From Christensenella sp. UBA1242 (GTDB lineage Bacteria; Bacillota; Clostridia; Christensenellales; UBA1242), in the NCBI GenBank assembly GCA_002308915.1, contig DBWI01000014.1, forward strand, positions 5,340 through 69,339: a stretch of 64,000 nucleotides of DNA. The letters are read 5' to 3'. Positions within the stretch are counted from its first letter, which is position 1. The number at the start of each line of letters is the position of its first letter. The position numbers and the translations under genes were made by a program. The notes under the pieces are model-generated. The model had not been told where the DNA came from, ran no database searches, and saw only the letters and a program-made list of their open reading frames with translations. Shown here piece after piece: positions 22,220-63,412 of this stretch.

Positions 22220-22267
22220 GTCAAATTTTGTCGCATATTGTTTTATTATGTGGTAAAATGTCAACAG

Positions 22268-23740: not shown

Positions 23741-23792
23741 GGTATTTACAAATTAATAAGTTTAATTTATAATAAAAACAAAGAGGTTGATT

Positions 23793-25997
23793 ATGTATAA
23801 TAAATATTATTACTATTACCAACTAGATTCAAATATTGATGAAATAATTAAAAAATATTTAGAACGCAAAGCAAATAACAAAGACCTAAAGTTTGTTATT
23901 ATTGTTGCCAAGTCACAAATGATGTCTGGCGCATACAAAAAGTTATATAATGAAATAATAAAGAAATTATACCAACATATTGGACCTTATGACATTTCTG
24001 TTTCTGTTTACACAAAAGACCATTATTATTCAACAAGTGATTGGTTAAAAATTAAAGAAGCAGGAGAATTTTTTAAAAAGTATTCAATAACCTTTGGATT
24101 TGAAGATATGAACAAAACTTGGTCTGTTAAAGAAGTTGAAATCGCAAATTCAAAAATTATGAGTTCTGCAAATGAGATAAAAAAAATGGGGCTCTCACCT
24201 TTTGAGTCTTTGATGGCGGCATATCTTAAAGTTACTTCAAGAAAATATACTTCGGAAGAAGAAAATGACCATTGGTCAACATCAAGGTCTGTTTATGGAG
24301 CTCTTAATGGTGGAAAAATTGTTTGTACTGGGTACAGTCAAATTTTGAAAGCCATAATTGATGAACTGGGTGAAGAAAATATTATTATTTACACAAATCA
24401 TGTTGCTGTTTCATGGGAAAATGAACAAATTGATGGATATCATTCAAATGTTATTTTGTATATTAAAGACGAAAAATATGGTATCAATGGTTATTATTAC
24501 CTAGATCCAACTTGGGATTCTAATAGTAAAAATATATCAGAAAAAGATTTGGCACACTTTATGGTTCCACTAAAAGACATTAATAAAATTAGAGGTAATA
24601 TTATATCTGATGATCATGTCTTTCCAAATAAAGATCCTGAGGATAAAAAACCTCAAAATGGTACTAAAAAGAACACATCAAAAAGTGATGAAATATATAA
24701 TAATTTTAAAATAGTCAATGCAACTAGAAGTGTTTCATTTACAAGTGATGGATTTCAGTTGACACAAAAATTTGTTAAAGATTTGCTTAAAATTTATCCA
24801 GAATTTGAGACTTATGTGAGAGAAAAATATAGAGATGAACAAGTAAACAAAACAATTGAATTAATCAATTCAACAGAAGAACAATATAAAGATTTATTAA
24901 ACCAATACAAACAAGATATCTATTATTTTGAAAGTGTTAAAGAGTTGTTTAAAGAATATGGAATAACTTACCTGACATTAAAAGAAGAAACTGATTTGAT
25001 GTTGATTGATTTTGATTCTGATAATAATAAAAAACTAGATGAAATTATTGATTTTTTGGATAAAACAAAACAAGCTCGTGAAGAAATTATGCAAAAATAC
25101 CCAGATGCTGTTAGTAGATTTGTTGATGCTTATAAAAATTATTACAAACAAAGAATTGAAGGATTAAATAAAAACATAGAAGAACAATTAAGAAATTGTA
25201 AAGAAATTTATCAACTTAACTATAATGGTGTTTATGAAGAATCAATACAAAAAGGATATTCACCAGAACAAGCTAAAGAAATAACTGAACGAATTAACGG
25301 AAAAACTTTTGAAGAAAGTCAAGAATACCTTACTTTTATTAGCAGAAAATCAGTTGATGATGATGCAATAAAAGAATGTGAAGATATTTTAATGAACAAA
25401 ACTCCTATTATTGAACAATTTGTAAAATATCACCCAGAAAGTCATCCATCTATTCTGGCATTATCAGATGAAGAAATAAGTGATTGTATTTTCTCTATGG
25501 ATCTTAATATTAGATGGGGAACTGAAGAAAGAGAATATGCGATAACAGAAGAGGATAAAGAAATTTTTGATAAAGAAATTACAAATAGAGGGTTAAAAGT
25601 TGAAAAGTATTTTTCACAAATCGATGACCAAATCGCCTCAAAAAAAGAATTTTTAGAAAGCGTAATACAAAGTAAAAATAAATTTATTAAAAGCTATAGT
25701 GAACTTGGATATGATGAGAACCTTAATGAAGACATTGTACAATATATAATGCGTAATCAAAATTTAGTTAAAGATTTTATAAGCAAAAAGAGTACTCCTG
25801 TTTTACAAGGCGGAATAGCGAATGCACTTAAGGCTGTACTTTCAAAAAAATATAAACAACTTGGCAAAGACCATGTTTATAGATTAGTAAAAGAGATTAT
25901 GGATTATAACTTTAGACATGCACCAAAAGAATTTAAAGACGATGCATCAATTTGTTTTTGTGAAAAAGGAATGGTTGCAGAACAAGGGAAAGAATAA
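23793..25997 (+). CDS. transglutaminase-like cysteine protease-fold protein with long coiled-coil C-terminus
   Basis: AGAGG RBS then ATG 23793. Candidate Cys-His-Asp triad context GKIVCTGYSQIL ... GYHSNVILYI ... YYLDPTWDS. Confidence 0.6.
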   Translation: MYNKYYYYYQLDSNIDEIIKKYLERKANNKDLKFVIIVAKSQMMSGAYKKLYNEIIKKLYQHIGPYDISVSVYTKDHYYSTSDWLKIKEAGEFFKKYSITFGFEDMNKTWSVKEVEIANSKIMSSANEIKKMGLSPFESLMAAYLKVTSRKYTSEEENDHWSTSRSVYGALNGGKIVCTGYSQILKAIIDELGEENIIIYTNHVAVSWENEQIDGYHSNVILYIKDEKYGINGYYYLDPTWDSNSKNISEKDLAHFMVPLKDINKIRGNIISDDHVFPNKDPEDKKPQNGTKKNTSKSDEIYNNFKIVNATRSVSFTSDGFQLTQKFVKDLLKIYPEFETYVREKYRDEQVNKTIELINSTEEQYKDLLNQYKQDIYYFESVKELFKEYGITYLTLKEETDLMLIDFDSDNNKKLDEIIDFLDKTKQAREEIMQKYPDAVSRFVDAYKNYYKQRIEGLNKNIEEQLRNCKEIYQLNYNGVYEESIQKGYSPEQAKEITERINGKTFEESQEYLTFISRKSVDDDAIKECEDILMNKTPIIEQFVKYHPESHPSILALSDEEISDCIFSMDLNIRWGTEEREYAITEEDKEIFDKEITNRGLKVEKYFSQIDDQIASKKEFLESVIQSKNKFIKSYSELGYDENLNEDIVQYIMRNQNLVKDFISKKSTPVLQGGIANALKAVLSKKYKQLGKDHVYRLVKEIMDYNFRHAPKEFKDDASICFCEKGMVAEQGKE

Positions 25998-47618: not shown

Positions 47619-48950
47619 TTATTTACCAAGACAAAATTTGCTAAATATATCGTTTATAATTTCTTCTGTGGCACTTTCACCGGTGATTTTTCCAAGTTCT
47701 TGCCATACTCTTTTTGTTTGCATATCGACAATGTCAGCACTAAAGTTTGTGCTTTGGATTGCTTCATCAATTAAAGATATTGCATTTTCTATTGCAATTT
47801 TGTGTCTTTGGTTTGTTATATAAAGTTGAGAAAAATCAATTTTGTCAACTCTAGTTTTTTCAAGAATTGAGTCAAGAATTTTGTCAATATTTTGGTTGTT
47901 TAATGCACTAACCAAAATTGCATTGTCTAATTTTGTAACAATTTGCTTGTCTGTTTTGTTAAGGATATAGAGTGTGTTTTTGTCTTTGATAAGGCTAAGT
48001 AATTCTTCATCTTCTTTGTCAAGTTTTTCGCTTGCATCAAAAATTGCAAGAATAATATCGGAATTGTTAAGCATTTGTTTGCTTTTTTCTACACCAATTT
48101 TTTCAACAATATCATCACTATTTCTGATTCCTGCTGTGTCAACAAAATTAATTTTTAATCCTTTGTACGAAATTGTTTCTTTTAGAACATCTCGAGTTGT
48201 TCCTTTGATTTCTGTTACAATGGCTCTATCTTCACCAATTAACCTATTGAGAAGACTGCTTTTCCCCACATTAGGTTTTCCAACAATTGCAACTGTTATT
48301 CCAAATTTTATTTTTTGACCAGTTGTGTAACTGTCTTTTAACTTTTCTAATTCTTGTTTGCTGTTTTGCAAAGTTTGTTTAACTTGGTTAATAGACATTT
48401 CTTCATCATCATGTTCGGGGTAGTCAAGAGAAACTTCCAAGTTGACAAGACAGTCCTTTAGATTGTCTTGAATTGTTTTTATTGTTTTGAAAAGCATGCC
48501 ATCTGTTAAGTTACTTGAAGCCTTGAGTTCTGCATCACTTGTGGCATTTATCATATCAATTGTTGCTTCTGCTTCATCGAGTGACATTTTGCCATTCATG
48601 AATGCACGCTTGGAAAATTCACCATTTTGTGCAAGTTCACAACCATTTTCTACTAATTTTTGCAAAATTTTTGTTGCAAGGTATTCTCCACCATGGATTT
48701 GAAATTCTACAACATCTTCACCAGTGAATGAGTATGGAGCTTTGAAGTAAACCATCATACACTTTTCAAAAGCGTTGTCACCAAGGTTGAACTTGCCAAG
48801 ATACATCTTTCTTGGTTCAATGTTATCTTTGGTTAAATTTTTTGCACAAAAAAGATTAAAGGCAATTTGCATTGCCTTGTCTCCACTTGTTTTTACTATT
48901 GAGATTCCGCCACTACCTAGAGGCGTAGATATCTGCGCTATTGTCTTCAT
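47619..48950 (-). CDS. mnmE: tRNA modification GTPase
   Basis: G1 GKPNVGKSSLLN, G3 DTAGIR, N-terminal THF-binding fold and C-terminal FCLGK (CxGK) motif. RBS GGAG. Confidence 0.95.
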   Translation of the reverse strand: MKTIAQISTPLGSGGISIVKTSGDKAMQIAFNLFCAKNLTKDNIEPRKMYLGKFNLGDNAFEKCMMVYFKAPYSFTGEDVVEFQIHGGEYLATKILQKLVENGCELAQNGEFSKRAFMNGKMSLDEAEATIDMINATSDAELKASSNLTDGMLFKTIKTIQDNLKDCLVNLEVSLDYPEHDDEEMSINQVKQTLQNSKQELEKLKDSYTTGQKIKFGITVAIVGKPNVGKSSLLNRLIGEDRAIVTEIKGTTRDVLKETISYKGLKINFVDTAGIRNSDDIVEKIGVEKSKQMLNNSDIILAIFDASEKLDKEDEELLSLIKDKNTLYILNKTDKQIVTKLDNAILVSALNNQNIDKILDSILEKTRVDKIDFSQLYITNQRHKIAIENAISLIDEAIQSTNFSADIVDMQTKRVWQELGKITGESATEEIINDIFSKFCLGK

Positions 48951-49896
48951 GTTTCTCCGTTGTTTGAGTGTATTTTGTTATTGCTTGATTGTATGCTTGT
49001 TTTGCAAGTCCATTTAATGTTATTAAATATTCTTTATAACTAGGTGTTATATAATATCCAAGATGTTCTATTTCTCTTATTGAATTTTTAATGTCAAAAT
49101 GTTTTAGTGTTTGTTTTAGGTATTCCATATATGTTGGTTTTGTTTGAGCCAACAAAACTATTTGTTCAACATCCTTTTTATATATTTTTTGATAGTCAAC
49201 CAAAATGCATTCATCATTGCAAAAGAAGTGCATATTTTGACCATGGTCAAACAAAAATCCTGATGTACCTAATAACTCTTTTTGTTCTAATGCAATACAC
49301 ATTGTACTTCCGCCAAAAGCTAATTCATTGTCAACTACTGGTGCAAGTTCATAAGTTTTATTTTGTCTGTCGTATAAAAAATTTAGGTTGTTGTGACGAT
49401 CTTCTTGAAATGTTAATGAGTCAAGTACCATAAGTTTGAATAGGTCAAAAGCTAGTTTGTCGATATCGGTATTGCTTTTGATTAAATTAAAATGGTCAAT
49501 TAGTCCTTGATAAGTAATATCATAAACAATTTTTCCATACATTTCTTGAATTGATACTAACTGTTTGTTTTTTGTTACAAAATTGTAACTTACTAGTCCA
49601 ACTTGTTTTTCATTGTGAGCAGCTTCGTATTCAGCCACTTTAACTCCATGTCTTTTTGCTAAGTTGCAATAAAGTAATTCATTTAATACTCTAATTTTTG
49701 ACATGTTTCCATCGTATGTTTTAAATAAGGCTTCTCCCTTTGGGGTTATGAACCAAACTTTTCCAAATGGGACAGAAGAAATACCAGTTTCACCAGTTCT
49801 TATTTTTGTGATAAAATCTTGCAAATTTATACCCTTTGCAAGTTTGATGTTTTTGTATTTCTTTTTATTTTTTATTAGATAACTAAATTTTACCAT
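48913..49896 (-). CDS. HipA_C-like kinase-fold protein, paralog 5 of 5
   Basis: 327 aa. DSLTFQEDRHNNLN catalytic-loop-like motif and LAPVVDNELAFG. RBS GAGGAAA. The last 38 nt overlap the mnmE start. Confidence 0.8.
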   Translation of the reverse strand: MVKFSYLIKNKKKYKNIKLAKGINLQDFITKIRTGETGISSVPFGKVWFITPKGEALFKTYDGNMSKIRVLNELLYCNLAKRHGVKVAEYEAAHNEKQVGLVSYNFVTKNKQLVSIQEMYGKIVYDITYQGLIDHFNLIKSNTDIDKLAFDLFKLMVLDSLTFQEDRHNNLNFLYDRQNKTYELAPVVDNELAFGGSTMCIALEQKELLGTSGFLFDHGQNMHFFCNDECILVDYQKIYKKDVEQIVLLAQTKPTYMEYLKQTLKHFDIKNSIREIEHLGYYITPSYKEYLITLNGLAKQAYNQAITKYTQTTEKHEDNSADIYASR

Positions 49897-50891
49897 AGTA
49901 TTTCCTCAACATCGTAATCAAAACATTGTGGGTGAATTTGTTTTGTTTCTTTTATTGTACTAACAAAAATTTGTTTTGACAAGTCGGTTATATCTTTTAG
50001 ATATTTTTTATAGTCAGCAGAGATTTTGTAACCTAGTTGTTCAACATTATTTATTGCGCTTTCTATATTAATATTGTTTAGACATTTTATGACAAATTCC
50101 TCATATTCTTTTCTGCCATATGACATTTGCAATAAATGTTTGAGATTTTCTTTGTATCTTACATCTGTAGACAAATAAGTTGTTCTGTCGTAAACAGGGA
50201 ACATCATATATCCTGCATGAGTTTTTAAAAAGTCTTGTGTTCTCATTTGTTCAGAACCAAAATTGTGGAATTTGTTGATTGTTTTTACGCCAAATGCAAA
50301 TTCGTTGTCGATAATAGGGGAAAGTTTGATTGTGTTATCCTTGGTGAGCAGAAAATGAATATTTGAATTGTGTCTGTCTTCTTGGAATGTCAATTCGTCA
50401 AGAATCATCATTTTAAACAAATCAAAATATATTTCTTTTTCATTAAAATTGTAGTCAACACGATAAACACTTAAAGCACGATAAAATGTTTCAAAATTAT
50501 CAATAACAAGATCCTTTCCAAATAGTTCACTAAGCTCAATTAATTTTTCGCCATTTTTTGCAACATCTATGCTTATAAGCCCAACATCTTTGTTTATATT
50601 CGCAGGTTTGTATTCTGCAACCTTAACACCAACTTGTTTTGCTACTTCATTGTATAATAGTTCACTGATAATTCTTAAATCTTTTGAAACATTAAAATCA
50701 TAATGTTTATACGACTTAAAAAGACCCTTGCCATATTTTGTAACAAACCATGTGTCACCATAGCCAATTGTTGATATTCCTTCAGTATAGTTATAGCGTT
50801 TAATTTTTTTTAAGTGTTTTATATCAATACCTTTGGCGAGTTTAAGGGTTTTGTATTTTCCTTTGTTTTTTAATAAAATTTTATTTCTCAT
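49890..50891 (-). CDS. HipA_C-like kinase-fold protein, paralog 4 of 5
   Basis: 333 aa. DELTFQEDRHNSNIHF and LSPIIDNEFAFG. Overlaps paralog 5 by 7 nt and paralog 3 by 11 nt. Confidence 0.8.
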   Translation of the reverse strand: MRNKILLKNKGKYKTLKLAKGIDIKHLKKIKRYNYTEGISTIGYGDTWFVTKYGKGLFKSYKHYDFNVSKDLRIISELLYNEVAKQVGVKVAEYKPANINKDVGLISIDVAKNGEKLIELSELFGKDLVIDNFETFYRALSVYRVDYNFNEKEIYFDLFKMMILDELTFQEDRHNSNIHFLLTKDNTIKLSPIIDNEFAFGVKTINKFHNFGSEQMRTQDFLKTHAGYMMFPVYDRTTYLSTDVRYKENLKHLLQMSYGRKEYEEFVIKCLNNINIESAINNVEQLGYKISADYKKYLKDITDLSKQIFVSTIKETKQIHPQCFDYDVEEILW

Positions 50892-51882
50892 TTATAATGT
50901 TTTCAACCTTTTTGTTATTAGAAAGCTCTGCGATATTTTCTTGAAATATTTCTTTTGATAAATTTGCTAAGTCAATTAAATAATTTTTGTAATCATAAGT
51001 GAATTGGTATCCATAGTCTTGCAATTTTTCAATTGCAGAAACCATATCTAAATTATTTAGTGCTTGCAACAAAAATTGCTTACAATTTTCATTTTTTTGT
51101 GCCAAACTTATTAAACTTTTTACATTATATACATATCTTTGAGTTCTTGGAATTTTGTTACCTTCTTGATCTACAAAAAATATTATATTTTGTCCATGAC
51201 ATGAAATAAATTTATCTTTGTATACATACAATGAAGAACAATCAAAGCCATGGCAGTAGTCAGTCATTGTTTTGATACCAAAAGCAAATTCGTTGTCAAT
51301 AATAGGTGATAGTCTTATGCTGTTGTTTGTGTCATTTACTATAAAATGTATGTTGTTATTATGTCTGTCTTCTTGGAAGGTAAGGGCATCAAAAACCATC
51401 ATTTTGTATAAGTCCAAAACCATTTTTTGTTTATCGTAATTTATATTTTTTGAATCCAAACTTTGCAAAATACTTTTTATTGAATATTTTGGTTCATCGT
51501 TAAAAAATGAAATACAATTTTGTATTTTTTCATTTTCACCACAAACATTGTATGAAATTACACCTTTTTTGAAATCAACATGTGCAGGTTCATAAATTGC
51601 AGTATCAATCCCAATTTGTTTTGCTATTTCGTAGCACAATACTTCGTTTGCATTTCTTATGTATTTTAACTCAATAAAATTCGCATTTTGAGCATTATAT
51701 GACTTAAAAATTCCAAGCCCGTTTTTTGTGTTAAACCAAACATTTTTATATTCATCTTCAACTGATATTCCGGTGGAAGTGTTTTGTCTAAACTTTGTGT
51801 TTACAGCGCCAAGCCAAATGCCTTTTGCAACTTTGAGTACTTGGTAATAGCCATTTATTTTTATTATAGGATTATTTGTCAT
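50881..51882 (-). CDS. HipA_C-like kinase-fold protein, paralog 3 of 5
   Basis: Start moved to ATG 51882 (MTNNPIIKING) behind GGAGGA at 51896-51891. DALTFQEDRHNNNIHF and LSPIIDNEFAFG. Overlaps the paralog 2 stop by 11 nt. Confidence 0.8.
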   Translation of the reverse strand: MTNNPIIKINGYYQVLKVAKGIWLGAVNTKFRQNTSTGISVEDEYKNVWFNTKNGLGIFKSYNAQNANFIELKYIRNANEVLCYEIAKQIGIDTAIYEPAHVDFKKGVISYNVCGENEKIQNCISFFNDEPKYSIKSILQSLDSKNINYDKQKMVLDLYKMMVFDALTFQEDRHNNNIHFIVNDTNNSIRLSPIIDNEFAFGIKTMTDYCHGFDCSSLYVYKDKFISCHGQNIIFFVDQEGNKIPRTQRYVYNVKSLISLAQKNENCKQFLLQALNNLDMVSAIEKLQDYGYQFTYDYKNYLIDLANLSKEIFQENIAELSNNKKVENIINEK

Positions 51883-52873
51883 AGATTTTATCCTCCAATA
51901 CAATGGAGTCTTGGCATTCTTGGCGTATTTCAGAAATACATTCTTTGAATGTGTTTTTTGATATTTTAATCAAATTTTTGACATAATTTTTGTATTCTGG
52001 CGAGATTTCGTATCCCAATTTTTCAACATTTTGGAATGCTTCTTCAATATTTAATTTGTGCAAAGCAAGGAATAAAAAGTTTTGCATTCTTTTGCTTTTT
52101 GTTGCCAATCTTACTAATTCTTTTATGTTTGCCTTATATCTTTGTTCACATGGCAATTTGCTTACAACTGTGTTTACATGCAATCTTATTGCTTCGCCGT
52201 GAAGTTTCATAAATGTGTTGTAGTCAATGTATTTAAATTTGTTGGCTTCATCAGAATTTAATGTTAGGGCGGCAAAACACATTTCGTTATCAATTAGTGG
52301 GGCACAAGTAAGGTAACCATCTTTATGATTTACTAAAAATGTCATATTATGTTCATGTCTGTCTTCTTGAAATGTTAGGGAGTCAAGAATCATCATTTTG
52401 TATAGGTTCATTTTGATATTACTTTTGTCAACATAATATCCTTCGCCTTCTTTAAAAATATCAAGGGCTTTTATGTAATCAACAAAAACATTGAATCCAC
52501 CAAATTCATCGTAATCTAGTAGTCCGCAGCCATCCATAAGTTCTTCATTGGATTTTGCAATATCCATACTAAGAAGACCGTTGTATTTTTTATAGTGAGC
52601 TGGTTTATATTTTGCAACAGATATACCTAATTGTTTTGCAAGTTCATCATACAAAAGTTCATTGGCAATTCTTGTTCCATCCATATCTATGTTGTAGTTT
52701 TTAAAAATTCCTCTGCCTTTTGGAGTTATAAACCACCTTGAGCCAAATCTTGACGTGGAAATACCTTTGACACCTGTTCTTTTTTGAGTGTCAAATTCTT
52801 CCAAATTTAATCCCAATGCGGGTTTGAGAGGTACAAGTTTGTATTTCTCTTTGTTTTTGATTATGGCTTTCAT
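51872..52873 (-). CDS. HipA_C-like kinase-fold protein, paralog 2 of 5
   Basis: 333 aa. DSLTFQEDRHEHNMTF and CAPLIDNEMCFA. AAGGA RBS. Starts 8 nt after the paralog 1 stop. Confidence 0.8.
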   Translation of the reverse strand: MKAIIKNKEKYKLVPLKPALGLNLEEFDTQKRTGVKGISTSRFGSRWFITPKGRGIFKNYNIDMDGTRIANELLYDELAKQLGISVAKYKPAHYKKYNGLLSMDIAKSNEELMDGCGLLDYDEFGGFNVFVDYIKALDIFKEGEGYYVDKSNIKMNLYKMMILDSLTFQEDRHEHNMTFLVNHKDGYLTCAPLIDNEMCFAALTLNSDEANKFKYIDYNTFMKLHGEAIRLHVNTVVSKLPCEQRYKANIKELVRLATKSKRMQNFLFLALHKLNIEEAFQNVEKLGYEISPEYKNYVKNLIKISKNTFKECISEIRQECQDSIVLEDKIYDK

Positions 52874-52881
52874 TTTTTCCT

Positions 52882-53844
52882 TTATTTTTGAAAATCATCT
52901 TTTTTGCGTTGCTTGTCAATTTGTTTTTTGTAACATTTTTTTGCAAGTTTTTCTAATTCCAAAAGATACAATTCGTAATCAGATGGAATTACGTGTCCTT
53001 TTTGACGAACATTATCTATTGCTTGTCTGAAATTTACATTTGTAAGCATTTTTACTAATATTTCTTTCTTTTGTTCATCTTGTGCTGCAATTTTTACAAT
53101 GTTATTTATATTATCAATATAACCCCTTCTTGAAGATGTTAAAGATGTTATAGGTATTGTTTCTGCAACATAATCCAAGTTTATGCTGTGTGAATACAAG
53201 AAAGATTTTTCTGCAATACCTTTTTCGTCGTAAACAACATTTTCTTGAAAACCACCAAATGCAAATTCGTTGTCAAGTATTGGTGCTAATTTAATTGTGT
53301 TATTTTTTTCATTATACAAGAACAATATATTTGAGTCGTGTCTGTCTTCTTGGAATGTTAATGAATCAAAAACCAATAATTTGTATAGGTCATTTGATGT
53401 TTTTTCAACATCAATATTATATCCGTGTTCATTTTTGAGAGTGTTAAGTGTTTGTATGTATTCTTTGAATGTGTTTGAAGGGTAGCCACTATTTACAATT
53501 TCTACAAGTTGCTCACCATCAATAATAACATCATCTTCATGTTCTCTTATATCATAAGAAACTAAGCCAGTTTTGTTTTTATAGTTTGCAGTTTCATATT
53601 TTGCCATATTAAGACCAAGTTGTTTGCCAAGTTCAAAACAGATAAGTTCATTTGCCATTCTCATTTCTGTTGTGCTTGTACCAAAAAACTTTTTGTCATA
53701 ATCTTTAAAATACAATTTTCCTTGTGGAGTATAAAAAAACCTAAGCACAATATCTTCTTGGCTTTTAAATTTGTCTAAATATATTCCTTTGGCGAGTTTA
53801 ATTCTGTCAAATTTGTTTTTATTTTTAATAATTATATTACTCAC
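52882..53844 (-). CDS. HipA_C-like kinase-fold protein, paralog 1 of 5
   Basis: 320 aa. GTG start with no SD, located at the predicted TSS. DSLTFQEDRHDSNILF and LAPILDNEFAFGG. The N-terminus IIIKNKNKFDRIKLAKGI aligns with the other four. Confidence 0.75.
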   Translation of the reverse strand: MSNIIIKNKNKFDRIKLAKGIYLDKFKSQEDIVLRFFYTPQGKLYFKDYDKKFFGTSTTEMRMANELICFELGKQLGLNMAKYETANYKNKTGLVSYDIREHEDDVIIDGEQLVEIVNSGYPSNTFKEYIQTLNTLKNEHGYNIDVEKTSNDLYKLLVFDSLTFQEDRHDSNILFLYNEKNNTIKLAPILDNEFAFGGFQENVVYDEKGIAEKSFLYSHSINLDYVAETIPITSLTSSRRGYIDNINNIVKIAAQDEQKKEILVKMLTNVNFRQAIDNVRQKGHVIPSDYELYLLELEKLAKKCYKKQIDKQRKKDDFQK

Positions 53845-56846: not shown

Positions 56847-57590
56847 TTATTTTCTGTCCCTTGAATTTAGTATAAAGAACAAAACAAATCTTAATAATTG
56901 TAAAATTGATACAACAATTGCTGCAACATAAGTCATTGCTGCTGCAGATAAAACTTTTTTTGCGCCTTTAACTTCCAATTCATCTAGACTTCCAGTTTCT
57001 ACTAACATTTTTAAGCCACGTTTTGATGCATTTAATTCAACAGGTAAGGTAACTAATGAAAATAGCAAAGTAACACCAAAGAATGCTACGCCAGCCCATA
57101 AGAATGCCTTACCAATAACACCACCAATATATGCAAAATCAAGAATAATTCCAATCAAAATTAGTGGCCAAACAAATGCGTTCATAATACTGCTTGTTTT
57201 TGCTAAAACTGTTCTAACTTTTAATGGGGCATATCCTTCACTGTGTTGAATTACGTGTCCAATTTCATGTGCAGCAACTGCAAGAGAGGCAACACTATCT
57301 TCGCCGTAAACTCTTTTTGATAGTGTTACAACTCCACTCTGTGGGTCATAGTTATCAATCAAGTCATCACTATCACCCTGTCTTACAACAGCATCAAGAA
57401 TATTATTTTTTTCAAGAATTTTGTTCGCAACTTCAGCACCAGTATATCCTTTTGCAGATTTAACTTGGTAGTATTTTGCGAATGTTAAATTTACTTTTAA
57501 ACTCATTACTGATGCAAAAATAATTCCTGGCAAAAGTATTAAACCAAGAAGTGTGTATTCAATATATTCAGGTGAGAACAAAATCCACAT
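56847..57590 (-). CDS. YugP-like membrane zinc metallopeptidase (Zn_peptidase_2 type)
   Basis: SLAVAAHEIGHVIQH (HExxH), LPVELNASKR and AAAMTYVAA. Collinear with B. subtilis YugP as recalled from memory. Confidence 0.8.
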   Translation of the reverse strand: MWILFSPEYIEYTLLGLILLPGIIFASVMSLKVNLTFAKYYQVKSAKGYTGAEVANKILEKNNILDAVVRQGDSDDLIDNYDPQSGVVTLSKRVYGEDSVASLAVAAHEIGHVIQHSEGYAPLKVRTVLAKTSSIMNAFVWPLILIGIILDFAYIGGVIGKAFLWAGVAFFGVTLLFSLVTLPVELNASKRGLKMLVETGSLDELEVKGAKKVLSAAAMTYVAAIVVSILQLLRFVLFFILNSRDRK

Positions 57591-57599
57591 ATTAAGCTC

Positions 57600-58310
57600 C
57601 TAATAAAAATCATATTTATTAACTAGCATTGTCCATTTTAGAACACTCTTTAGGAATGAAGCAATGTATGTTAATTTGGCGGCGGCCAAGACTTTTTTTG
57701 CACATTTTACGTCTTCTTCGTCAAAATATGCATATTTTTGTAGTAATCCTATTGCATTTTCCGATGCTTCTCTTTCTATTTGAATTGTTGAAAGTTTTGC
57801 AATAAGACCACTTAAAAAACAAAATATACCAACAGCAAAAACAGCTATTGCTGGAATAATACTAAAAAATGCAATTGGAATTGCAATTAGAACAAATGGC
57901 AAAGCGAGTTTTGATACAATAGAGCAAAAAACCAATTTTCTTCCAAACTTTTTCATTTTTTCTGGAGTGTCACGATATTGAATTGCGTGACCAAGTTCAT
58001 GTGCACAAACAGAGAATGCCGAAACATTATTTGCAGATGCAACACCTTGGGAAAGAGAGATTGTTTCTTTGTAGTAATTGTCTGTCAAAATTCCTGGAAT
58101 AATTGTTGTTCTTACTCTGCCATGAAATTCATTGTCAGAAACAGTTTGTGCAAATTTGAGAGGAGTGTTGAAATCAACAATTCTTTTTGAAAACTTGTTG
58201 TAAACAACAAGCAAATTTTCGCCAGCAAAATTAGCGACTGCAAGACCAATCACCAACAATAGCACAATTGCACCAATAACTGACAAAATTATAATTGTTT
58301 GTAAATCCAT
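57600..58310 (-). CDS. YugP-like membrane zinc metallopeptidase, second tandem copy
   Basis: FSVCAHELGHAIQY (HExxH), IQIEREASENA and AAAKLTYIASF. 9-nt gap to the downstream copy. Confidence 0.75.
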   Translation of the reverse strand: MDLQTIIILSVIGAIVLLLVIGLAVANFAGENLLVVYNKFSKRIVDFNTPLKFAQTVSDNEFHGRVRTTIIPGILTDNYYKETISLSQGVASANNVSAFSVCAHELGHAIQYRDTPEKMKKFGRKLVFCSIVSKLALPFVLIAIPIAFFSIIPAIAVFAVGIFCFLSGLIAKLSTIQIEREASENAIGLLQKYAYFDEEDVKCAKKVLAAAKLTYIASFLKSVLKWTMLVNKYDFY

Positions 58311-58370
58311 ACATATATAATGTGCAAAAAAAAAGAAAAAGTCAAATCAATTAATGCTTTATAATGCATA

Positions 58371-58399
58371 TTGACAAAAACATGAAAGTGGTGTAATAT
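58371..58399 (+). promoter_or_regulatory. cassette 1 promoter
   Basis: TTGACA 58371-58376, 17 nt, TAATAT 58394-58399. Near-identical to the sequences at 59620 and 60766. Confidence 0.6.
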
Positions 58400-58422
58400 A
58401 AAAACATAAGGGGAGAAAAATT

Positions 58423-59577
58423 ATGGCAAAATTAACAGAAAAAGAAGTTGTTGAACAAATAATAAATGCAGATATCAACTTTTTTGATGAATTAGAAGAA
58501 GAAAAAGAATACAAAGAGCTTCAAGAGATTTATAAAGAAGAAGAAAAACTTGCAGAAAAAGCAGAAAAAGAAGCAAAGCCATTCGAAGAAATTCAAGAAC
58601 AAATGAAAAATGATTTTCGTAAAATAATTGCGGAAAATTATTTTATTGATACTCATGAAACATGGAATGGGGAATATGGACCTGATGCTAGTTGGGATTA
58701 TAGTGATAACCTTTATATTAATGGCCATTTGTTAATTGAAGATACTATGTTACATGACCATTGGGATAGGGGAGATGTTTTAAGTATTCCAGCATCTCAA
58801 TTTGAAAAAATAATAGATGCATCGCTTAAATTAAAAGAAGAATTAGATAAACATGTTATTCGTTACAATGAATTGTTAGAACAACCAGAAGTTGTAGAAT
58901 ATAATAATCTCCAAAATCAAATAGACGAATTGTCAAAACAAAAAGGATTGGGAGCAAAATTAAAGTTAGCTCAATTAAATTCAAAGAAAAAGAAAATGCT
59001 CAAAAACCCAGCAGTTAAAGAATTTGATGACATAATAAAAGTATTTGATGTTAATCTTTATAATAAACTTGAAGAAGTTATTCCAGTACTTCAAGAAAAA
59101 AATGAAAAATACAGAAAAGCAAAAGAAGATGAAGAAAAAGTATGGAGTGATTTAAAAAGTAAATTTAAATTTAGCGAAGATGAAAAATATTCTCTTTGGT
59201 ATTGGGAAGAAGATAGAATAAATAATAAGTTAAGGGAACTAGATAAAAAGATAAAAGGAATAAAAATTCCAAGAGAAAAAGCTACCAAATTGTTAATTCT
59301 TGCACAGTTTTATAGAGAACATGAAGCAGAATACAAAGATGACCGTAAAACACTTCTTATGATATATGCAGAGAATATGGATAAAGAATTAAAAGAAGAT
59401 TTTAAGACAGCTTTAAGTGCATATGACAAAGCAATTAATATTGCAAAGACAGAAGGAAAGGCGGATTTCAAAAAGCTTACAATTTTGGAACAATTGGATT
59501 ACTTTGAAGCAGGTAAAAAAGTTATTAAAGCAGAAAAGGAATTTGGAAAGCTTAATAATGGCGATGGTAAACAATAA
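58423..59577 (+). CDS. uncharacterised MAKLTEKE-family protein, cassette 1 of 3 (384 aa)
   Basis: RBS GGGGAG. N-terminus MAKLTEKEVVEQI. Conserved C-terminal block FYREHEAEY...RKTLLMIYAEN...YFEAGKKVIKAEKEF. No signal peptide or TM helix; highly charged and helical. Confidence 0.8.
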   Translation: MAKLTEKEVVEQIINADINFFDELEEEKEYKELQEIYKEEEKLAEKAEKEAKPFEEIQEQMKNDFRKIIAENYFIDTHETWNGEYGPDASWDYSDNLYINGHLLIEDTMLHDHWDRGDVLSIPASQFEKIIDASLKLKEELDKHVIRYNELLEQPEVVEYNNLQNQIDELSKQKGLGAKLKLAQLNSKKKKMLKNPAVKEFDDIIKVFDVNLYNKLEEVIPVLQEKNEKYRKAKEDEEKVWSDLKSKFKFSEDEKYSLWYWEEDRINNKLRELDKKIKGIKIPREKATKLLILAQFYREHEAEYKDDRKTLLMIYAENMDKELKEDFKTALSAYDKAINIAKTEGKADFKKLTILEQLDYFEAGKKVIKAEKEFGKLNNGDGKQ

Positions 59578-59587
59578 TAAACAAAAA

Positions 59588-59611
59588 GGCACACCACTTG
59601 GTGTGTTTTTT
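59588..59611 (+). terminator. cassette 1 terminator
   Basis: CACACCA CT TGGTGTG followed by T6. Confidence 0.75.
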
Positions 59612-59619
59612 ATTGTATA

Positions 59620-59648
59620 TTGACAAAAACAAGAAAGTGGTGTAATAT
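59620..59648 (+). promoter_or_regulatory. cassette 2 promoter
   Basis: TTGACA 59620-59625, 17 nt, TAATAT 59643-59648. Confidence 0.6.
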
Positions 59649-59671
59649 AAAAATATAAAGGGAGAAAAATT

Positions 59672-60721
59672 ATGGCAAAATTAACAGAAAAAGAAGTTGT
59701 TGAACAAATCAATAGTGAAGATATTTCACTATTAGATAATTATGCGCCACATATTGCAGACAAAGAAAGTCTTGTAAAATTTGAAAAAGACAAGGAAGTT
59801 GCAGAAAAAAGAAGAAGAGAAAAAGAAGACGAACTTGACAAGTTTTTTGAAGGAATAGGGGTTGAAGACCGTGTTACTGGTTCTCATGATGAAGGATATG
59901 GTAGAGACAGAGATACCTACTATGATGTTGTTTTATGTATTGGTGGTTGTACTATTGATAAAAAATTAGATAGTTGGAGTAGTCATTTTTCTATAGATGA
60001 AAAAGTTGAAGCATTAAATGAATTTTTAAAAGAATACAATGAAAAACAAAATAGATTTAATCACCTTGTTGCTGGGAAAGAACTTGAAGAATACAATAAT
60101 CTTATTGATGAATTAAATGAAATTAAAAACAAGGGATTTTTTGGAAAACTTGCAGCAAGTGGCAGAGTTAGACAAATAAATAAAAGATTGGCAGAGCTCA
60201 AAAAATATGCTGATGAATATAATGAATTAAATTTCGATTTGAAAGTCAAAAAAAATGCATATGACAAAGTTTCTGGCATTGAAAACGAAATGAATGAAAA
60301 GTTTGAAGAGTTAAAAAAATTAGAAGAATTAGAAAAGTCTTTTAGGTATGGTTATAATTATTGGGACCGTGGCGAAAGATATAAAGAGAAAGACGAAACA
60401 GAAGAAAGAATTAAAAACAGAGAAAAGAATGTTAAAAACTTTAAACTTGTTAAGTTTTATAGAGAGCACGAAGCTGAATTTGCAAACACCAGAAAAACTC
60501 TTCTTATGATATATGCAGAAAATACAAACCAAGAATTCCAAGAGAATTTCAAAGATATGTTAAAAGCTTATGACCAGGCTGCTAAGATTGCAAAAGAGGA
60601 AGGCAAAGATTTTGCAACACTCAAAGAAGTAGAGCAATTTGAGTATTTTGAAGCAGCTCAAAAGGTTATTGAAGCAAACAAAAAATTTGATGCACACAAA
60701 CAGGGCGGCGGAAAAGAATAA
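59672..60721 (+). CDS. uncharacterised MAKLTEKE-family protein, cassette 2 of 3 (349 aa)
   Basis: The first ~40 nt of coding sequence and the 5'UTR are almost identical to cassette 1. The C-terminus KFYREHEAEFANTRKTLLMIYAEN...FEYFEAAQKVIEANKKFDAHKQGGGKE. Confidence 0.8.
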   Translation: MAKLTEKEVVEQINSEDISLLDNYAPHIADKESLVKFEKDKEVAEKRRREKEDELDKFFEGIGVEDRVTGSHDEGYGRDRDTYYDVVLCIGGCTIDKKLDSWSSHFSIDEKVEALNEFLKEYNEKQNRFNHLVAGKELEEYNNLIDELNEIKNKGFFGKLAASGRVRQINKRLAELKKYADEYNELNFDLKVKKNAYDKVSGIENEMNEKFEELKKLEELEKSFRYGYNYWDRGERYKEKDETEERIKNREKNVKNFKLVKFYREHEAEFANTRKTLLMIYAENTNQEFQENFKDMLKAYDQAAKIAKEEGKDFATLKEVEQFEYFEAAQKVIEANKKFDAHKQGGGKE

Positions 60722-60732
60722 AACAAAAGCAA

Positions 60733-60758
60733 GGCACACCACTTGGTGTGTCTTTTTG
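60733..60758 (+). terminator. cassette 2 terminator
   Basis: CACACCA CT TGGTGTG then TCTTTTT. Confidence 0.7.
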
Positions 60759-60765
60759 TTGCATA

Positions 60766-60794
60766 TTGACAAAAACAAGAAAGTTGTGTAATAT
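60766..60794 (+). promoter_or_regulatory. cassette 3 promoter
   Basis: TTGACA 60766-60771, 17 nt, TAATAT 60789-60794. Confidence 0.6.
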
Positions 60795-60817
60795 AAAAAC
60801 ATAAAGGGAGAAAAATT

Positions 60818-61870
60818 ATGGCCAAATTAACAGAAAGAGATGTGTTTGAAGCGCTTAGAAACCTTGATACTAGTTTTTTGGATGACTATAAACCATATAA
60901 CGATGATTATGCTACGACGATAAAATTTCATGAAGGCAAAAGAACTTCCGAAAGTAATTATTTTAATGCAGCAGGAAAAGTACAGAAGGCGATAGATAAG
61001 TGTTTAATTCGTGAGAAATCAAATTTTGTAAGACATGATGGCGATTTGGAGGGTGATAATTTATATAATTACGACTTGTATATTGCAGGAGTAAATGTTT
61101 CTCATATTACTGATATTGAGTATTATGAATATCCGCTAAAAAAGAAAATTGAGTATGCTCAAGAATTTGTGAAAGAATTTAAACAGAATTATGAAAAAAA
61201 CAAAAAAAGGCTAGAAGAACTTACTGCTAGTCCAGAAATTGCTGAATATAACAATCTTATTAATGTATTAGATAAAATAGATAATAAAGGATTTTTTGGA
61301 AGACTTACCGAAGAATCAAAAATTAGACAAATAAGAAAAAGATTAGAAGAACTCAAAAAATATGTTGATGATTACAATAACTTAAAGAAATATGTTAAAG
61401 ATTATAAAGATGGAGATGTGGTTGTTGAAAATTTGCCAAAGTTAATAGAAGCGATTCGAGAACGCGATGCCATGTATGATGTGTACAGAATTTATCATAA
61501 TGAAAATAGATTTAATGATTCAAAAGAATATTTAGACTACCAAAATGCAAAAAAACAAGTTTCCAAAAGAGAATCTAATGCAAAGGATTTTAAGATTGTT
61601 AAGTTTTATAGAGAGCATGAAGCAGAATTTGCAAATACCTCCAAAACTCTTATTATGATTTATCAAGAAATTCTAGGCGAAAGATATTTGGAAAACTTTA
61701 AAGATATGCTGGTAGCATATAATCAAGCCGGCGTTATTGCAAAAAAAGAAGGAAAAGATTTTAACGCTCTTCAAGAAAGCGAACAATTTGGGTACTTTGA
61801 GGCAGCTCAAAAAGTTGTTGAAGCAAACAATAAATTTAATGCACACAAAGAGGGTGGCGGAAAAGAATAA
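60818..61870 (+). CDS. uncharacterised MAKLTEKE-family protein, cassette 3 of 3 (350 aa)
   Basis: MAKLTERDVFEAL... The C-terminus KFYREHEAEFANTSKTLIMIYQE...FGYFEAAQKVVEANNKFNAHKEGGGKE. Confidence 0.8.
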   Translation: MAKLTERDVFEALRNLDTSFLDDYKPYNDDYATTIKFHEGKRTSESNYFNAAGKVQKAIDKCLIREKSNFVRHDGDLEGDNLYNYDLYIAGVNVSHITDIEYYEYPLKKKIEYAQEFVKEFKQNYEKNKKRLEELTASPEIAEYNNLINVLDKIDNKGFFGRLTEESKIRQIRKRLEELKKYVDDYNNLKKYVKDYKDGDVVVENLPKLIEAIRERDAMYDVYRIYHNENRFNDSKEYLDYQNAKKQVSKRESNAKDFKIVKFYREHEAEFANTSKTLIMIYQEILGERYLENFKDMLVAYNQAGVIAKKEGKDFNALQESEQFGYFEAAQKVVEANNKFNAHKEGGGKE

Positions 61871-61881
61871 AAATAAAAAAG

Positions 61882-61909
61882 ACATATCCAATAAAGGATA
61901 TGTTTTTTT
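61882..61909 (+). terminator. cassette 3 terminator
   Basis: ACATATCC AATAAA GGATATGT followed by T7. Confidence 0.75.
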
Positions 61910-61972
61910 ATGCATAATTTCAAATTTTTTCTTGACAACAGAGAAAAAATAATATAACATATAGAAGATTTT

Positions 61973-62054
61973 GCGAGTATGGCGGAATGGCAGACGCGCT
62001 TGTTTAAGGGGCAAGTGGGAAACCGTATGGGTTCAAGTCCCGTTACTCGCACCA
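61973..62054 (+). tRNA. tRNA-Leu (class II; anticodon read manually as AAG)
   Basis: GCGAGTA-TG-GCG-GAATGGCAGA-CGC-G-CTTGT-TTAAGGG-GCAAG-TGGGAAACCGT-ATGGG-TTCAAGT-CCCGT-TACTCGC-A-CCA. Long variable arm. The anticodon assignment needs tRNAscan confirmation. Confidence 0.8.
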
Positions 62055-62088
62055 AATTCACACTCAAGTTGGGTGTGTTTTTTTATTT
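62039..62088 (+). repeat. direct repeat copy A (tRNA-Leu 3' end plus terminator)
   Basis: CCCGTTACTCGCACCAAATTCACACTCA (62039-62066) is identical to 62213-62240. The following hairpin and T-run are also conserved except for the loop. Confidence 0.85.
62059..62084 (+). terminator. terminator after tRNA-Leu
   Basis: CACACTCA AGT TGGGTGTG followed by T7. Confidence 0.75.
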
Positions 62089-62212: not shown

Positions 62213-62261
62213 CCCGTTACTCGCACCAAATTCACACTCATATTGAGTGTGTTTTTTATTT
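62213..62261 (+). repeat. direct repeat copy B (orphan tRNA-Leu 3' end plus terminator)
   Basis: The same 28-nt core, then CACACTCA TAT TGAGTGTG followed by T6 (62233-62257). It lies 174 bp downstream of copy A with no tRNA body in front of it. Confidence 0.85.
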
Positions 62262-62320
62262 GTATAAAAATAATTTTGCATATTTTTTTTATTTATGTTA
62301 AATTATTAACGGAGACTTTT

Positions 62321-63412
62321 ATGAAAAATATAATTTTAACAGCAGATAGACCAACTGGAAACTTGCATATTGGGCATTTTGTAGGGTCACTTCGTGAAAG
62401 AGTTAGAATGCAAAACGAAACAGAATATGATGATTTGTTTGTTATGATTGCAGATGCGCAAGCATTAACAGACAATGCAGATAATCCACAAAAAATTAGG
62501 GATAATGTTATGGAAGTTATGCTTGATTATTTGGCTGTTGGACTTGATCCACAAAAAACAACTTTTTGTCTTCAATCCGAAATAACTGCGTTGCCAGAAA
62601 TAACATTATATTATATGAATCTTGTATCTTTGCCAAGACTTCTTAGGAACCCAACAGTAAAAACAGAAATTGGAATGAGAGGATTTGATAAGAATACTGG
62701 TGTGCCAGTTGGATTTGCTTGTTATCCAATAAGTCAAGCTGCAGATATTACAGCATTCAAGGCAAACCTAATTCCTGTTGGGGAAGATCAAGAACCAATG
62801 CTTGAACAAACAAGAGAAATTGTTCGTGCTTTTAACAGAATATACAAAACAGATATTCTTGTTGAGTGCAAAGCAATGCTTGGTAGAAATAAAGAGAGTA
62901 TGCGTCTTCCTGGTACAGATGGAAATGCAAAAATGAGCAAGTCAATTGGTAATTGTATATATCTTTGTGATGAGCCAGATGTAATTAAAAAGAAAGTTAA
63001 TTCAATTGCTACCGCTCCAAGGAAGTTAGAAGAGCCTGGTGATGTTGAAAATAGTGTGTTATTCACATATCTTCGTGCATTTTGTGAAGATAAACATTTT
63101 GAAATGTTCTATCCAGAATATGCCAATTTAAAAGAATTGGAAGCTGCTTATGCAAAAGGTGGACTTGGTGATGGTAAGGTTAAAAAATTTCTTTTTGATG
63201 TACTTAATGATGTTTTGACTCCTATTCGTGAAAGAAGGAAAGAAATGTCTAAGCACATTCCAGAGATTTTAGAAATACTCAAAAAGGGTACACAAAAAGC
63301 AAATCAAGTTGCAGATAATACACTTCATGAAATAAAGCGAGCAATGGGTATTGATTACTATAGTGATAATAGTTTTGCAGAAGAACAAATAAAAAAATAC
63401 TCAAATAAGTAA
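62321..63412 (+). CDS. trpS: tryptophanyl-tRNA synthetase
   Basis: Start at ATG 62321 behind GGAG at 62311-62314 (the track ORF starts upstream inside the terminator). HIGH-type GNLHIGHF, KMSKS as AKMSKS, and a TrpRS II-like length of 363 aa. Confidence 0.93.
   Translation: MKNIILTADRPTGNLHIGHFVGSLRERVRMQNETEYDDLFVMIADAQALTDNADNPQKIRDNVMEVMLDYLAVGLDPQKTTFCLQSEITALPEITLYYMNLVSLPRLLRNPTVKTEIGMRGFDKNTGVPVGFACYPISQAADITAFKANLIPVGEDQEPMLEQTREIVRAFNRIYKTDILVECKAMLGRNKESMRLPGTDGNAKMSKSIGNCIYLCDEPDVIKKKVNSIATAPRKLEEPGDVENSVLFTYLRAFCEDKHFEMFYPEYANLKELEAAYAKGGLGDGKVKKFLFDVLNDVLTPIRERRKEMSKHIPEILEILKKGTQKANQVADNTLHEIKRAMGIDYYSDNSFAEEQIKKYSNK

Follow-up and report, generated by a model that had tools for sequence, protein, structure and literature searches.

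The 64-kb stretch analyzed here (64,000 nucleotides [nt] of contig DBWI01000014.1 of Christensenella sp. UBA1242, referred to as the window) contains three consecutive plus-strand genes of a protein family without a known relative: g1 (384 amino acids [aa]; 58423..59577), g2 (349 aa; 59672..60721), and g3 (350 aa; 60818..61870). These open reading frames (ORFs) are exactly those of the original prediction, which was made from the sequence without database searches and described three autonomous cassettes, each with its own promoter, leader, ribosome binding site, and terminator. A promoter scan finds TTGACA and TAATAT, separated by 17 nt, in front of every gene. In cassette 1, a homogenized 5′ block (58366..58465) comprises the promoter (TTGACA, 58371-58376; TAATAT, 58394-58399), a leader of ∼20 nt, a Shine-Dalgarno (SD) sequence (GGGGAG, 58410-58415), and the first ∼14 codons, and g1 is followed by an intrinsic terminator (59584..59611) consisting of the stem CACACCA/TGGTGTG and a T-run (−12.7 kcal/mol). 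The promoter, leader, and SD of cassette 2 occupy 59620..59671 (TTGACA, 59620-59625; TAATAT, 59643-59648), and the terminator after g2 (60731..60754; −14.3 kcal/mol) has the same stem as that after g1, as had been claimed for two of the three copies. Those of cassette 3 occupy 60766..60817 (TTGACA, 60766-60771; TAATAT, 60789-60794), and a terminator at 61881..61911 (hairpin GACATATCCAATAAAGGATATGTT at 61882-61903, followed by a T-run) stands after g3. All of these elements are on the plus strand. The SD of each cassette is of the AAGGGAG type, the hairpin energies of the array terminators range from −10 to −14 kcal/mol, and over ∼130 nt the blocks upstream of the three genes have a per-column identity of 89%, in agreement with the near-identity noted originally.

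The three-cassette arrangement is beyond chance, since the 36-nt promoter pattern occurs three times in the window (≤1 mismatch) and not at all in 100 shuffles, and since the array region holds 12 terminator-like sites against 2.0 expected. CACAC.../...GTGTG stems are found in four terminator-like hairpins within 2.7 kb, namely after g1 (59590-59605), after g2 (60735-60750), after a tRNA-Leu gene (62059-62077), and just before trpS (62233-62251), which suggests a locally reused terminator motif. Rfam families were absent from the array and its surroundings except for tRNA-Leu, with no T-box before trpS, and the family hidden Markov model (HMM), which recovers g1 at an E value of 9.5e−93, found no further diverged copy elsewhere in the window.

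The family was described as unrecognizable, and this held against every collection searched. In addition to single-sequence searches with g1 to g3, 17 family members were scanned individually. The best Pfam match had an E value of 0.005 (16.7 bits against a cutoff of 27), was limited to single members, and belonged to no family matched by more than 2 of the 17; NCBIfam (best E value, 0.023) and PHROGs (best E value, 0.005, one member) gave nothing significant; and PADLOC yielded nothing beyond coiled-coil noise (LmuB in 2 of 17 members; E value, 1.8e−4). Among PDB sequences, profiles of 5 and 17 members matched short coiled coils alone, at E values of at least 7.5e−4, and assignment to a known family was therefore rejected, as these five resources gave coiled-coil noise only. 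A word-indexed search of 5.8 billion clusters recovered g1 to g3 and two metagenome proteins and nothing else; its repetition with the 17-member alignment, in which low-complexity words saturated the output, added nothing. When 1.84 billion representatives were searched exhaustively with an HMM, 21 matched: ∼17 full-length members (333 to 384 aa), two C-terminal fragments, one tetratricopeptide repeat false positive, and the chimera P0006. No relative was found among GTDB species representatives or, using patterns tuned to the g1-g3 subfamily, in JGI metagenomes, and three different branches of the family had no match in INPHARED phages, PLSDB plasmids, or IMG/VR, so that an origin from phages or plasmids is unsupported.

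The apparent g3-DnaA fusion P0006 (467 aa, on a 1,637-bp ENA contig) was discarded as an assembly chimera joined at the shared peptide QNAKKQV. It links residues 1 to 250 of g3 (window positions 60818-61585) to residues 51 to 272 of DnaA (19665-20330) and is almost certainly a de Bruijn graph misassembly. The sample from which it derives holds the same species as the window, with DnaA 100% identical over 222 residues and g3 96.4% identical over 250.

The three proteins are related only distantly to one another (g1-g2, 35 to 39% identity; g1-g3, ∼30%; g2-g3, ∼43%). They share 78 invariant columns, most of which fall within residues 1 to 11, the EYNNL/KG block, and the C-terminal ∼95 aa, i.e., the regions in which conservation had been noticed. 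Family members are rich in K and E, with a grand average of hydropathy (GRAVY) of −0.75 to −1.26 (∼−1 in g1 to g3), and the isoelectric point is 5 to 6.3 in 16 of 17 members and 8.5 in P0007. A transmembrane helix or signal peptide would require more hydrophobicity than any 19-residue stretch has (maximum Kyte-Doolittle means of 0.08 to 0.88 across all 17 members and of 0.44 to 0.69 in g1 to g3), which agrees with the absence of both noted originally for the window proteins. The tails are short polar sequences such as GGGKE, GDGKQ, and GKGKE and contain no Gln run.

AlphaFold2 models of g2 reached a mean predicted local distance difference test (pLDDT) score of 86 and a predicted template modeling (pTM) score of 0.69 with 5 aligned sequences and of 91.1 and 0.74, respectively, with 17, when all five models scored ≥89.7. 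The predicted structure is a compact multihelix bundle with a three-stranded β-meander at residues 64 to 101; two short N-terminal helices and a 37-residue helix precede the meander, and ∼nine helices and a disordered five-residue tail (pLDDT, <50) follow it. An insertion in g1 falls in the β-meander region. The description of the proteins as charged and coiled-coil-like was thus accurate in its first part and only partly so in its second. Foldseek comparison of the g2 model with PDB and BFVD, one of the checks that had been proposed, found no significant match and no analogue. The alignment of 17 members lacks any invariant column, and near-invariance is confined to two tyrosines, a pattern that speaks against an enzyme. 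Together, the confident model, the hydropathy, and the alignment predict that g1 to g3 encode a real, folded, soluble, nonenzymatic helical-bundle protein of ∼350 aa. Judged by sequence and modeled structure, the protein family and its predicted fold are categorically new, although tandem duplication, concerted evolution, and hypervariable alleles between conserved flanks are already well-known phenomena; what is new here is a protein family and a fold, not a demonstrated biological system, and many uncharacterized lineage-specific families exist.

The array lies between conserved boundaries. On the left, a Zn_peptidase_2 membrane metallopeptidase gene (57600..58310, minus strand; Pfam PF04298, E value of 1.3e−32) is divergent from the array and has 75% identity to a counterpart adjoining a single family gene on L084, a 98-kb metagenome contig that is syntenic with the window. 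The order in L084 is a HipA_C-like array, an M18 aminopeptidase gene, Zn_peptidase_2 genes, a lone family gene (P0007, which has a promoter and a terminator to itself), and tRNA-Leu. On the right, tRNA-Leu(aag) (61973-62054, plus strand; own promoter at 61932-61960) marks the boundary in the window, in L084, and in L002, which belongs to a closer relative sampled as L001 to L003. In that relative, the tRNA-Leu flank and the promoter block before each gene are as in the window, and comparison of contig ends indicates at least three cassettes. The copy number comparison that had been proposed therefore gives one copy in L084, at least three in the closer relative, and three here. The terminator at 61881..61911 is part of the right flank rather than of a cassette, because its hairpin is also found 3′ of P0004, the nonorthologous last cassette of L002, and in a diverged version 3′ of P0007.

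Divergence within these boundaries is uneven. Between the window and L084, the M18 peptidases are 82% identical, the Zn peptidases 73 to 75%, a hypothetical gene 54%, the HipA_C-like genes 42 to 46%, and the cassette family 28 to 40%. Between the window and L002, identity is ∼92% in the 102-nt spacer from the last cassette to tRNA-Leu and ∼93% in the promoter block, whereas the cassettes adjacent to that spacer (g3 and P0004) encode proteins with ∼33% identity, and the best cross-genome pair, g3 and its orthologue P0002, reaches 48%. Because the proteins are far more diverged than the flanking genes, the spacer, and the promoter block, the cassette bodies appear to form a hypervariable region between conserved “handles,” in line with the earlier proposal of a diversifying family. 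P0002 and a 97% identical twin differ in 11 codons, 10 of them nonsynonymously and 1 synonymously, all within codons 164 to 236. In the sample that yielded P0006, g3 (96.4% identity) has likewise changed more than DnaA (100%). A 310-aa neighbor that seemed to recur beside family genes was rejected, as the genes concerned are not homologous between loci.

The junctions between cassettes evolve differently from the bodies. The g1/g2 and g2/g3 junctions (59584-59700 and 60731-60850) are 85 to 95% identical over the stretch that runs from the terminator to roughly codon 10; past ∼59700 and ∼60850 identity falls abruptly to 40 to 55%, which delimits the putative conversion tract at the nucleotide level. 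All three 5′ blocks of the window carry AAGAAAGT and AAAAA(C/T)ATAA, and at those positions both copies of the related genome carry AAAAAAGT and AAAGGTATAA; the orthologous block of L084 is only 57 to 67% identical. Paralogous tracts are thus more alike within than between genomes and end at a sharp boundary. These genome-specific states are shared even though g1 predates the split of the genomes, and they indicate that gene conversion, originally suggested for the 5′ ends, or unequal crossing-over homogenizes the ∼120-nt junctions within each genome. The C-terminal block behaves otherwise: protein identity is 47 to 87% and identity at third codon positions only 40 to 67%, for which reason its conservation is best ascribed to purifying selection on the protein and not to conversion. 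In g2 and g3 the final 15 codons are 89% identical in nucleotide sequence and may be part of the junction tract.

In a neighbor-joining tree, g3 groups with P0002 (95% bootstrap support), then with g2 (79%) and P0007 (89%), and g1 and P0004 fall outside this clade. This topology implies that g2 and g3 are the younger pair and g1 an older paralogue, and that cassette order differs between the window genome and the closer relative; the original picture is to be corrected in this respect, as the array does not appear to consist of three copies of equal age. A second array was found in a distant relative (locus L090), where P0010, P0014, and P0018 are monophyletic at 99%, so that this triplication was independent. 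The L090 genes form an operon with one promoter, 45- to 60-bp spacers, and one terminator. Together with a disrupted second family copy in L089, the window array and the L090 triplet indicate that tandem duplication is recurrent in the family. L084, L086, and L092 hold a single copy.

Two independent triplications, with at least three copies in a third genome, also fit an assembly of different subunits. The paralogues might be components of a self-assembling structure, such as a hetero-oligomer, a filament, or a cytoskeletal or coat-like polymer, in which the conserved terminal helices would serve as interfaces, the variable segments would face outward as they do in flagellin or intermediate-filament proteins, and identical promoters or a shared operon would balance the subunits. 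The single operon of L090, the identical promoters of the window, the conservation of termini and center with variable segments between them, and the strong expression signals throughout the family are all consistent with this view; the single-copy genomes (L084, L086, and L092), however, show that there is no need for a fixed complex of three parts, the AlphaFold model is a compact monomer (pTM, 0.74) and not an extended coiled coil, and no similarity to flagellin or known filament formers was found. We regard self-assembly as a serious alternative, if an unlikely one.

Tandem flagellin arrays (of the fliC or flaA-flaB type) illustrate how far the resemblance extends. Like the cassettes, they are adjacent, monocistronic, strongly expressed paralogues, each with a promoter and terminator, whose products have conserved ends, a variable interior, and no Sec signal, and alleles that differ strongly among close relatives lie between conserved flanks. 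Unlike flagellins, the 17 family members lack Flagellin_N (PF00669) and Flagellin_C (PF00700), even at E values up to 1, and similarity in fold; their promoters are of the σA rather than the σ28 type, a further conserved segment lies in the center, and no export apparatus is linked to the genes.

Expression signals are strong across the family. Of 13 upstream regions sampled independently, 12 have a best σ70-type site that scores 10 to 12 of 12, in which TTGAC(A/G/T) and TAnAAT are 16 to 17 nt apart and a TGn extension is frequent. The promoters end 20 to 31 nt before the ATG (71 nt in the exceptional L090 operon), and a strong SD after the promoter and a hairpin terminator after the gene are family-wide. 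The stand-alone arrangement of promoter, gene, and terminator is likewise found in 12 of 13 independently sampled family loci, which agrees with the autonomy proposed for the window cassettes and supports high, constitutive, monocistronic expression as a probable property of the family. The three copies of the window would be transcribed independently and, because their promoters are nearly identical, probably at similarly high levels. Codon bias was discarded as a proxy for expression, as third-position composition is dominated by the coding strand: with few exceptions, the proportion of C at the third position of NNY codons is 0.28 to 0.42 in minus-strand genes of the window and 0.10 to 0.26 in plus-strand genes.

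The same promoters bear on a possible role in sporulation. Spore coat and exosporium proteins are abundant, lineage-specific, and fast evolving, lack signal peptides, and are often encoded in paralogue clusters, and spoIVA, the gene for the coat-anchoring ATPase, directly follows the L090 array. The absence of an export signal, the fast divergence, and the narrow distribution of the family would suit coat or exosporium components made in the mother cell. Nevertheless, the family promoters have the near-consensus σA form (TTGACA-17-TAnAAT, often with TGn) and not that of σE or σK, a distinction that is established for Bacillus; spoIVA adjoins the family in one locus only, and no sporulation gene was seen in the window. 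This explanation is highly improbable.

A tRNA gene lies within 350 nt of a family gene in four independent lineages, with tRNA-Leu(aag), tRNA-Ile, tRNA-Arg(acg), and tRNA-Arg(tcg) (61973-62054 in the window and 11158-11239 in L084; 1075-1151 in L085; 3117-3193 in L089; 11175-11249 in L092), and the family gene is on the 3′ side of the tRNA in three of the four. The probability of such proximity by chance is ∼3e−5 against an unrelated low-GC background and is estimated at ∼0.02 with the window's own high tRNA density. The association may reflect insertion or recombination hot spots or the colocation of strongly transcribed units.

Within L090 positions 1 to 21011, PycTM- and KwaA-like defense genes and a terminase gene lie upstream of the operon and spoIVA, parA, and a gene for a P22-type portal lie downstream, so that the locus is a mosaic of phage-like, defense, and sporulation genes. 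The position of the array just downstream of the defense-like genes, between terminase and portal, is one reason to consider a module for antiphage or interbacterial conflict, in which the proteins would act as constitutively produced sensors, decoys, or immunity proteins of differing specificity or as a tripartite α-helical pore-forming toxin of the ClyA/Hbl/Ahl type. Fast divergence and recurrent expansion of paralogues would be expected of such a module, and three adjacent paralogues of ∼350 aa, helical with a small β element, recall the toxins, AhlB being among the weak Foldseek matches. These matches were insignificant (E values, 0.4 to 2.3; template modeling scores, 0.13 to 0.19; root mean square deviations, 11 to 21 Å), and the hydrophobic hairpin is absent from all 17 members (maximum 19-aa hydropathy, ≤0.88). 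The PADLOC result amounted to the LmuB noise mentioned above, none of the phage, plasmid, and IMG/VR collections had a match, and nine contexts (the window, L084, L085, L086, L088, L089, L090, L092, and L093) showed no adjacent toxin, nuclease, or effector gene, hence no cognate toxin for an immunity array, and no conserved partner gene. A conflict module is very unlikely on this evidence.

The ClyA superfamily toxins (Hbl, Nhe, AhlABC, and SmhABC) resemble the family in having three adjacent paralogues of ∼350 to 400 aa with long helices and a small β element, and the L090 genes form an operon as well; the family differs in lacking the hydrophobic β-tongue or hairpin, in its single-copy genomes, and in the separate transcription units of the window. 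Prophage “morons” and other autonomous cassettes are also self-contained units of promoter, gene, and terminator that occur in varied contexts, often beside tRNA genes, but the window has neither a prophage context nor an adjacent integrase gene, and phage collections contain no homologues.

Two family members lie near a gene for a VirD4/TraG-type coupling protein, which begins 264 bp after the family gene in L092 and lies 1.3 kb downstream in L086. The two families are the only ones common to these loci, with 47% identity between the coupling proteins and 21% between the family members. By analogy, family proteins might serve a VirD4-like type IV coupling protein as substrates or adaptors, with the C-terminal block and tail as the signal and the variable part as the delivered activity; a conserved C-terminal domain, a disordered tail, and the absence of a Sec signal would agree with this. 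A precedent is XVIPCD, a ∼120-aa C-terminal VirD4-binding domain of type IV secretion system (T4SS) effectors (PMC8740702). The X-Tfe/XVIPCD effectors described there likewise combine a conserved C-terminal domain (∼95 to 120 aa in this comparison), a flexible tail, and a variable upstream part, and occur in several copies per genome, but their Gln-rich tails and adjacent immunity genes have no equivalent in the family, whose homology is full length and not modular.

Linkage to the coupling protein was examined by searching every ORF of 80 metagenome loci (1.02 Mb) with the family HMM; the coupling proteins of these loci share 33 to 68% identity with the L092 protein, against which the scan was run, and as much as 77% with that of L086. 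None of the 80 holds a family member, including L095 (77%, downstream region syntenic) and L094 (68%), while positive controls were recovered at E values of 1e−57 or better, and the linkage is thus not conserved. Furthermore, neither the 64-kb window nor the 21 kb examined of L084 or L090 contains a coupling protein or T4SS gene, and in L092 a tRNA gene and a separate promoter stand between the two genes. Only a slim chance can be given to the family as a set of coupling protein substrates or adaptors. The coupling protein itself (L086, 9598-11625; L092, 11392-13398; relatives in L094 to L173) is widespread in metagenome contigs of low to moderate GC content, with 425 relatives detected. In L086 and L095 it lies amid housekeeping genes (rpoZ, priA, def, and fmt) with no other T4SS gene listed nearby and appears to be an orphan chromosomal type. 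A giant ORF of >3,500 aa without a Pfam match (L092, 1-6074) is located 4 kb upstream of the family member P0017.

We consider it fairly probable that the array is a coexpressed, fast-diversifying repertoire of an abundant nonenzymatic protein that is kept by recombination between identical junctions. The anatomy of the locus, the rarity of the family, its lack of homologues, the duplication history, the homogenized junctions, and the contrast in rates are established from sequence, together with a confident predicted fold; strong and simultaneous transcription of the three copies is inferred. One ancestral stand-alone, apparently strongly expressed gene underwent lineage-specific tandem expansion to three. 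The unit of duplication was the whole cassette, from the σA-type promoter and ∼20-nt leader through the strong SD and the gene to the intrinsic terminator, and each copy would be transcribed on its own because the whole expression cassette was duplicated. Gene conversion or unequal crossing-over would keep the ∼120-nt junction (terminator, promoter, leader, and first ∼10 to 13 codons) nearly identical, and these repeats would in turn be substrates for the gain, loss, and reshuffling of cassettes; recombination of this kind could explain one copy in L084, at least three reordered copies in the closer relative, and three here. Purifying selection acts on the N-terminal helix, the central EYNNL...KGFF...L..LKK segment, and the C-terminal helical block of ∼95 aa, which may be the core of the fold or a common interaction surface. 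The long helix and β-meander (approximately residues 30 to 135) and the helices at approximately residues 205 to 250 change fast and would present a variable surface under diversifying pressure from phages, competitors, or the host. All copies retain active expression signals, and the array is therefore presumably not an on/off system of antigenic variation.

A repertoire of binding or structural proteins is the most likely functional reading, considerably less probable than the coexpressed, diversifying repertoire as such. Several points weigh against the explanation as a whole. The case for concerted evolution involves only three or four diagnostic sites in a 58-nt block; tree support is weak for the placement of g1 (63%) and P0004 (40%); and the 10:1 nonsynonymous excess in P0002, in sequences from different samples, is not significant by itself. 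Independent transcription and high abundance are read from sequence alone, and codon choice fails to set the cassette genes apart from other plus-strand genes. No partner, ligand, or localization directly supports a binding repertoire, and the L090 operon fits a hetero-oligomer at least as well as it fits a repertoire.

If the proteins are as abundant as the expression signals suggest, they would be a major unrecognized component of uncultured gut bacteria. Abundant proteins usually evolve slowly, and the combination of strong expression signals with evolution several-fold faster than that of neighboring genes is the opposite of this rule. Strong expression coupled with fast evolution usually marks an interface with phages, competitors, or the host. 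A more specific proposal, which we hold to be quite unlikely, is that the family supplies the building block of an abundant cellular structure or surface recognition system in uncultured low-GC gut Firmicutes, with a new fold whose conserved parts serve assembly or docking and whose helix/β-meander face is diversified by exchange of cassettes via the ∼120-nt “handles,” all variants being expressed at once. The locus would then represent a new kind of exchangeable-cassette variation locus with simultaneous expression of all variants. The diversifying repertoire that we favor would already make it a clean natural example of promoter-to-terminator cassettes that are duplicated, homogenized at their junctions, and exchanged between close relatives.

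By its gene content, the window is the chromosomal origin region of a bacterium with 30% GC. Its genes include dnaA-dnaN, parAB, mnmG/mnmE, hisS, leuS, trpS, and tsaD, and it also encodes a release factor and a type I restriction-modification system. Five tandem, partly overlapping HipA_C-like (kinase-like) paralogues of 320 to 340 aa occupy 48913-53844 on the minus strand, and L084 has five syntenic full-length copies (30 to 46% identity) and a sixth cut by the end of the locus; they constitute a second fast-evolving paralogue array, 5 kb from the family cassettes. Zn_peptidase_2 (PF04298) is represented by three minus-strand paralogues (56847-57590, 57600-58310, and 15700-16503), two of which are adjacent to each other and divergent from the cassette array; in L084, three stand in a row. 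Two plus-strand genes without a Pfam match, encoding 500 aa (22238-23740) and 736 aa (23787-25997), lie directly 3′ of dnaN, and the former also adjoins dnaN in L084. With respect to the family locus, dnaA-dnaN has opposite orientations in the window and in L084. The closest relatives of trpS (62318-63412) are in two gut metagenome-assembled genomes (MAGs) labeled Clostridiales or Clostridia (74 to 77% identity), followed by MAGs of “Candidatus Saccharibacteria” or Nanosyncoccus (66 to 69%), which rank ahead of the other MAGs listed that are labeled Firmicutes or Bacteroidota. A Saccharibacteria host, considered on account of the Nanosyncoccus relatives, was set aside, since the nearest trpS matches bear Clostridiales or Clostridia labels, a distant member of the family adjoins spoIVA, and the promoters and SD are of the kind usual in Firmicutes; the host is probably an uncultured low-GC Firmicute. 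Gut Firmicutes and Saccharibacteria may have exchanged trpS horizontally.

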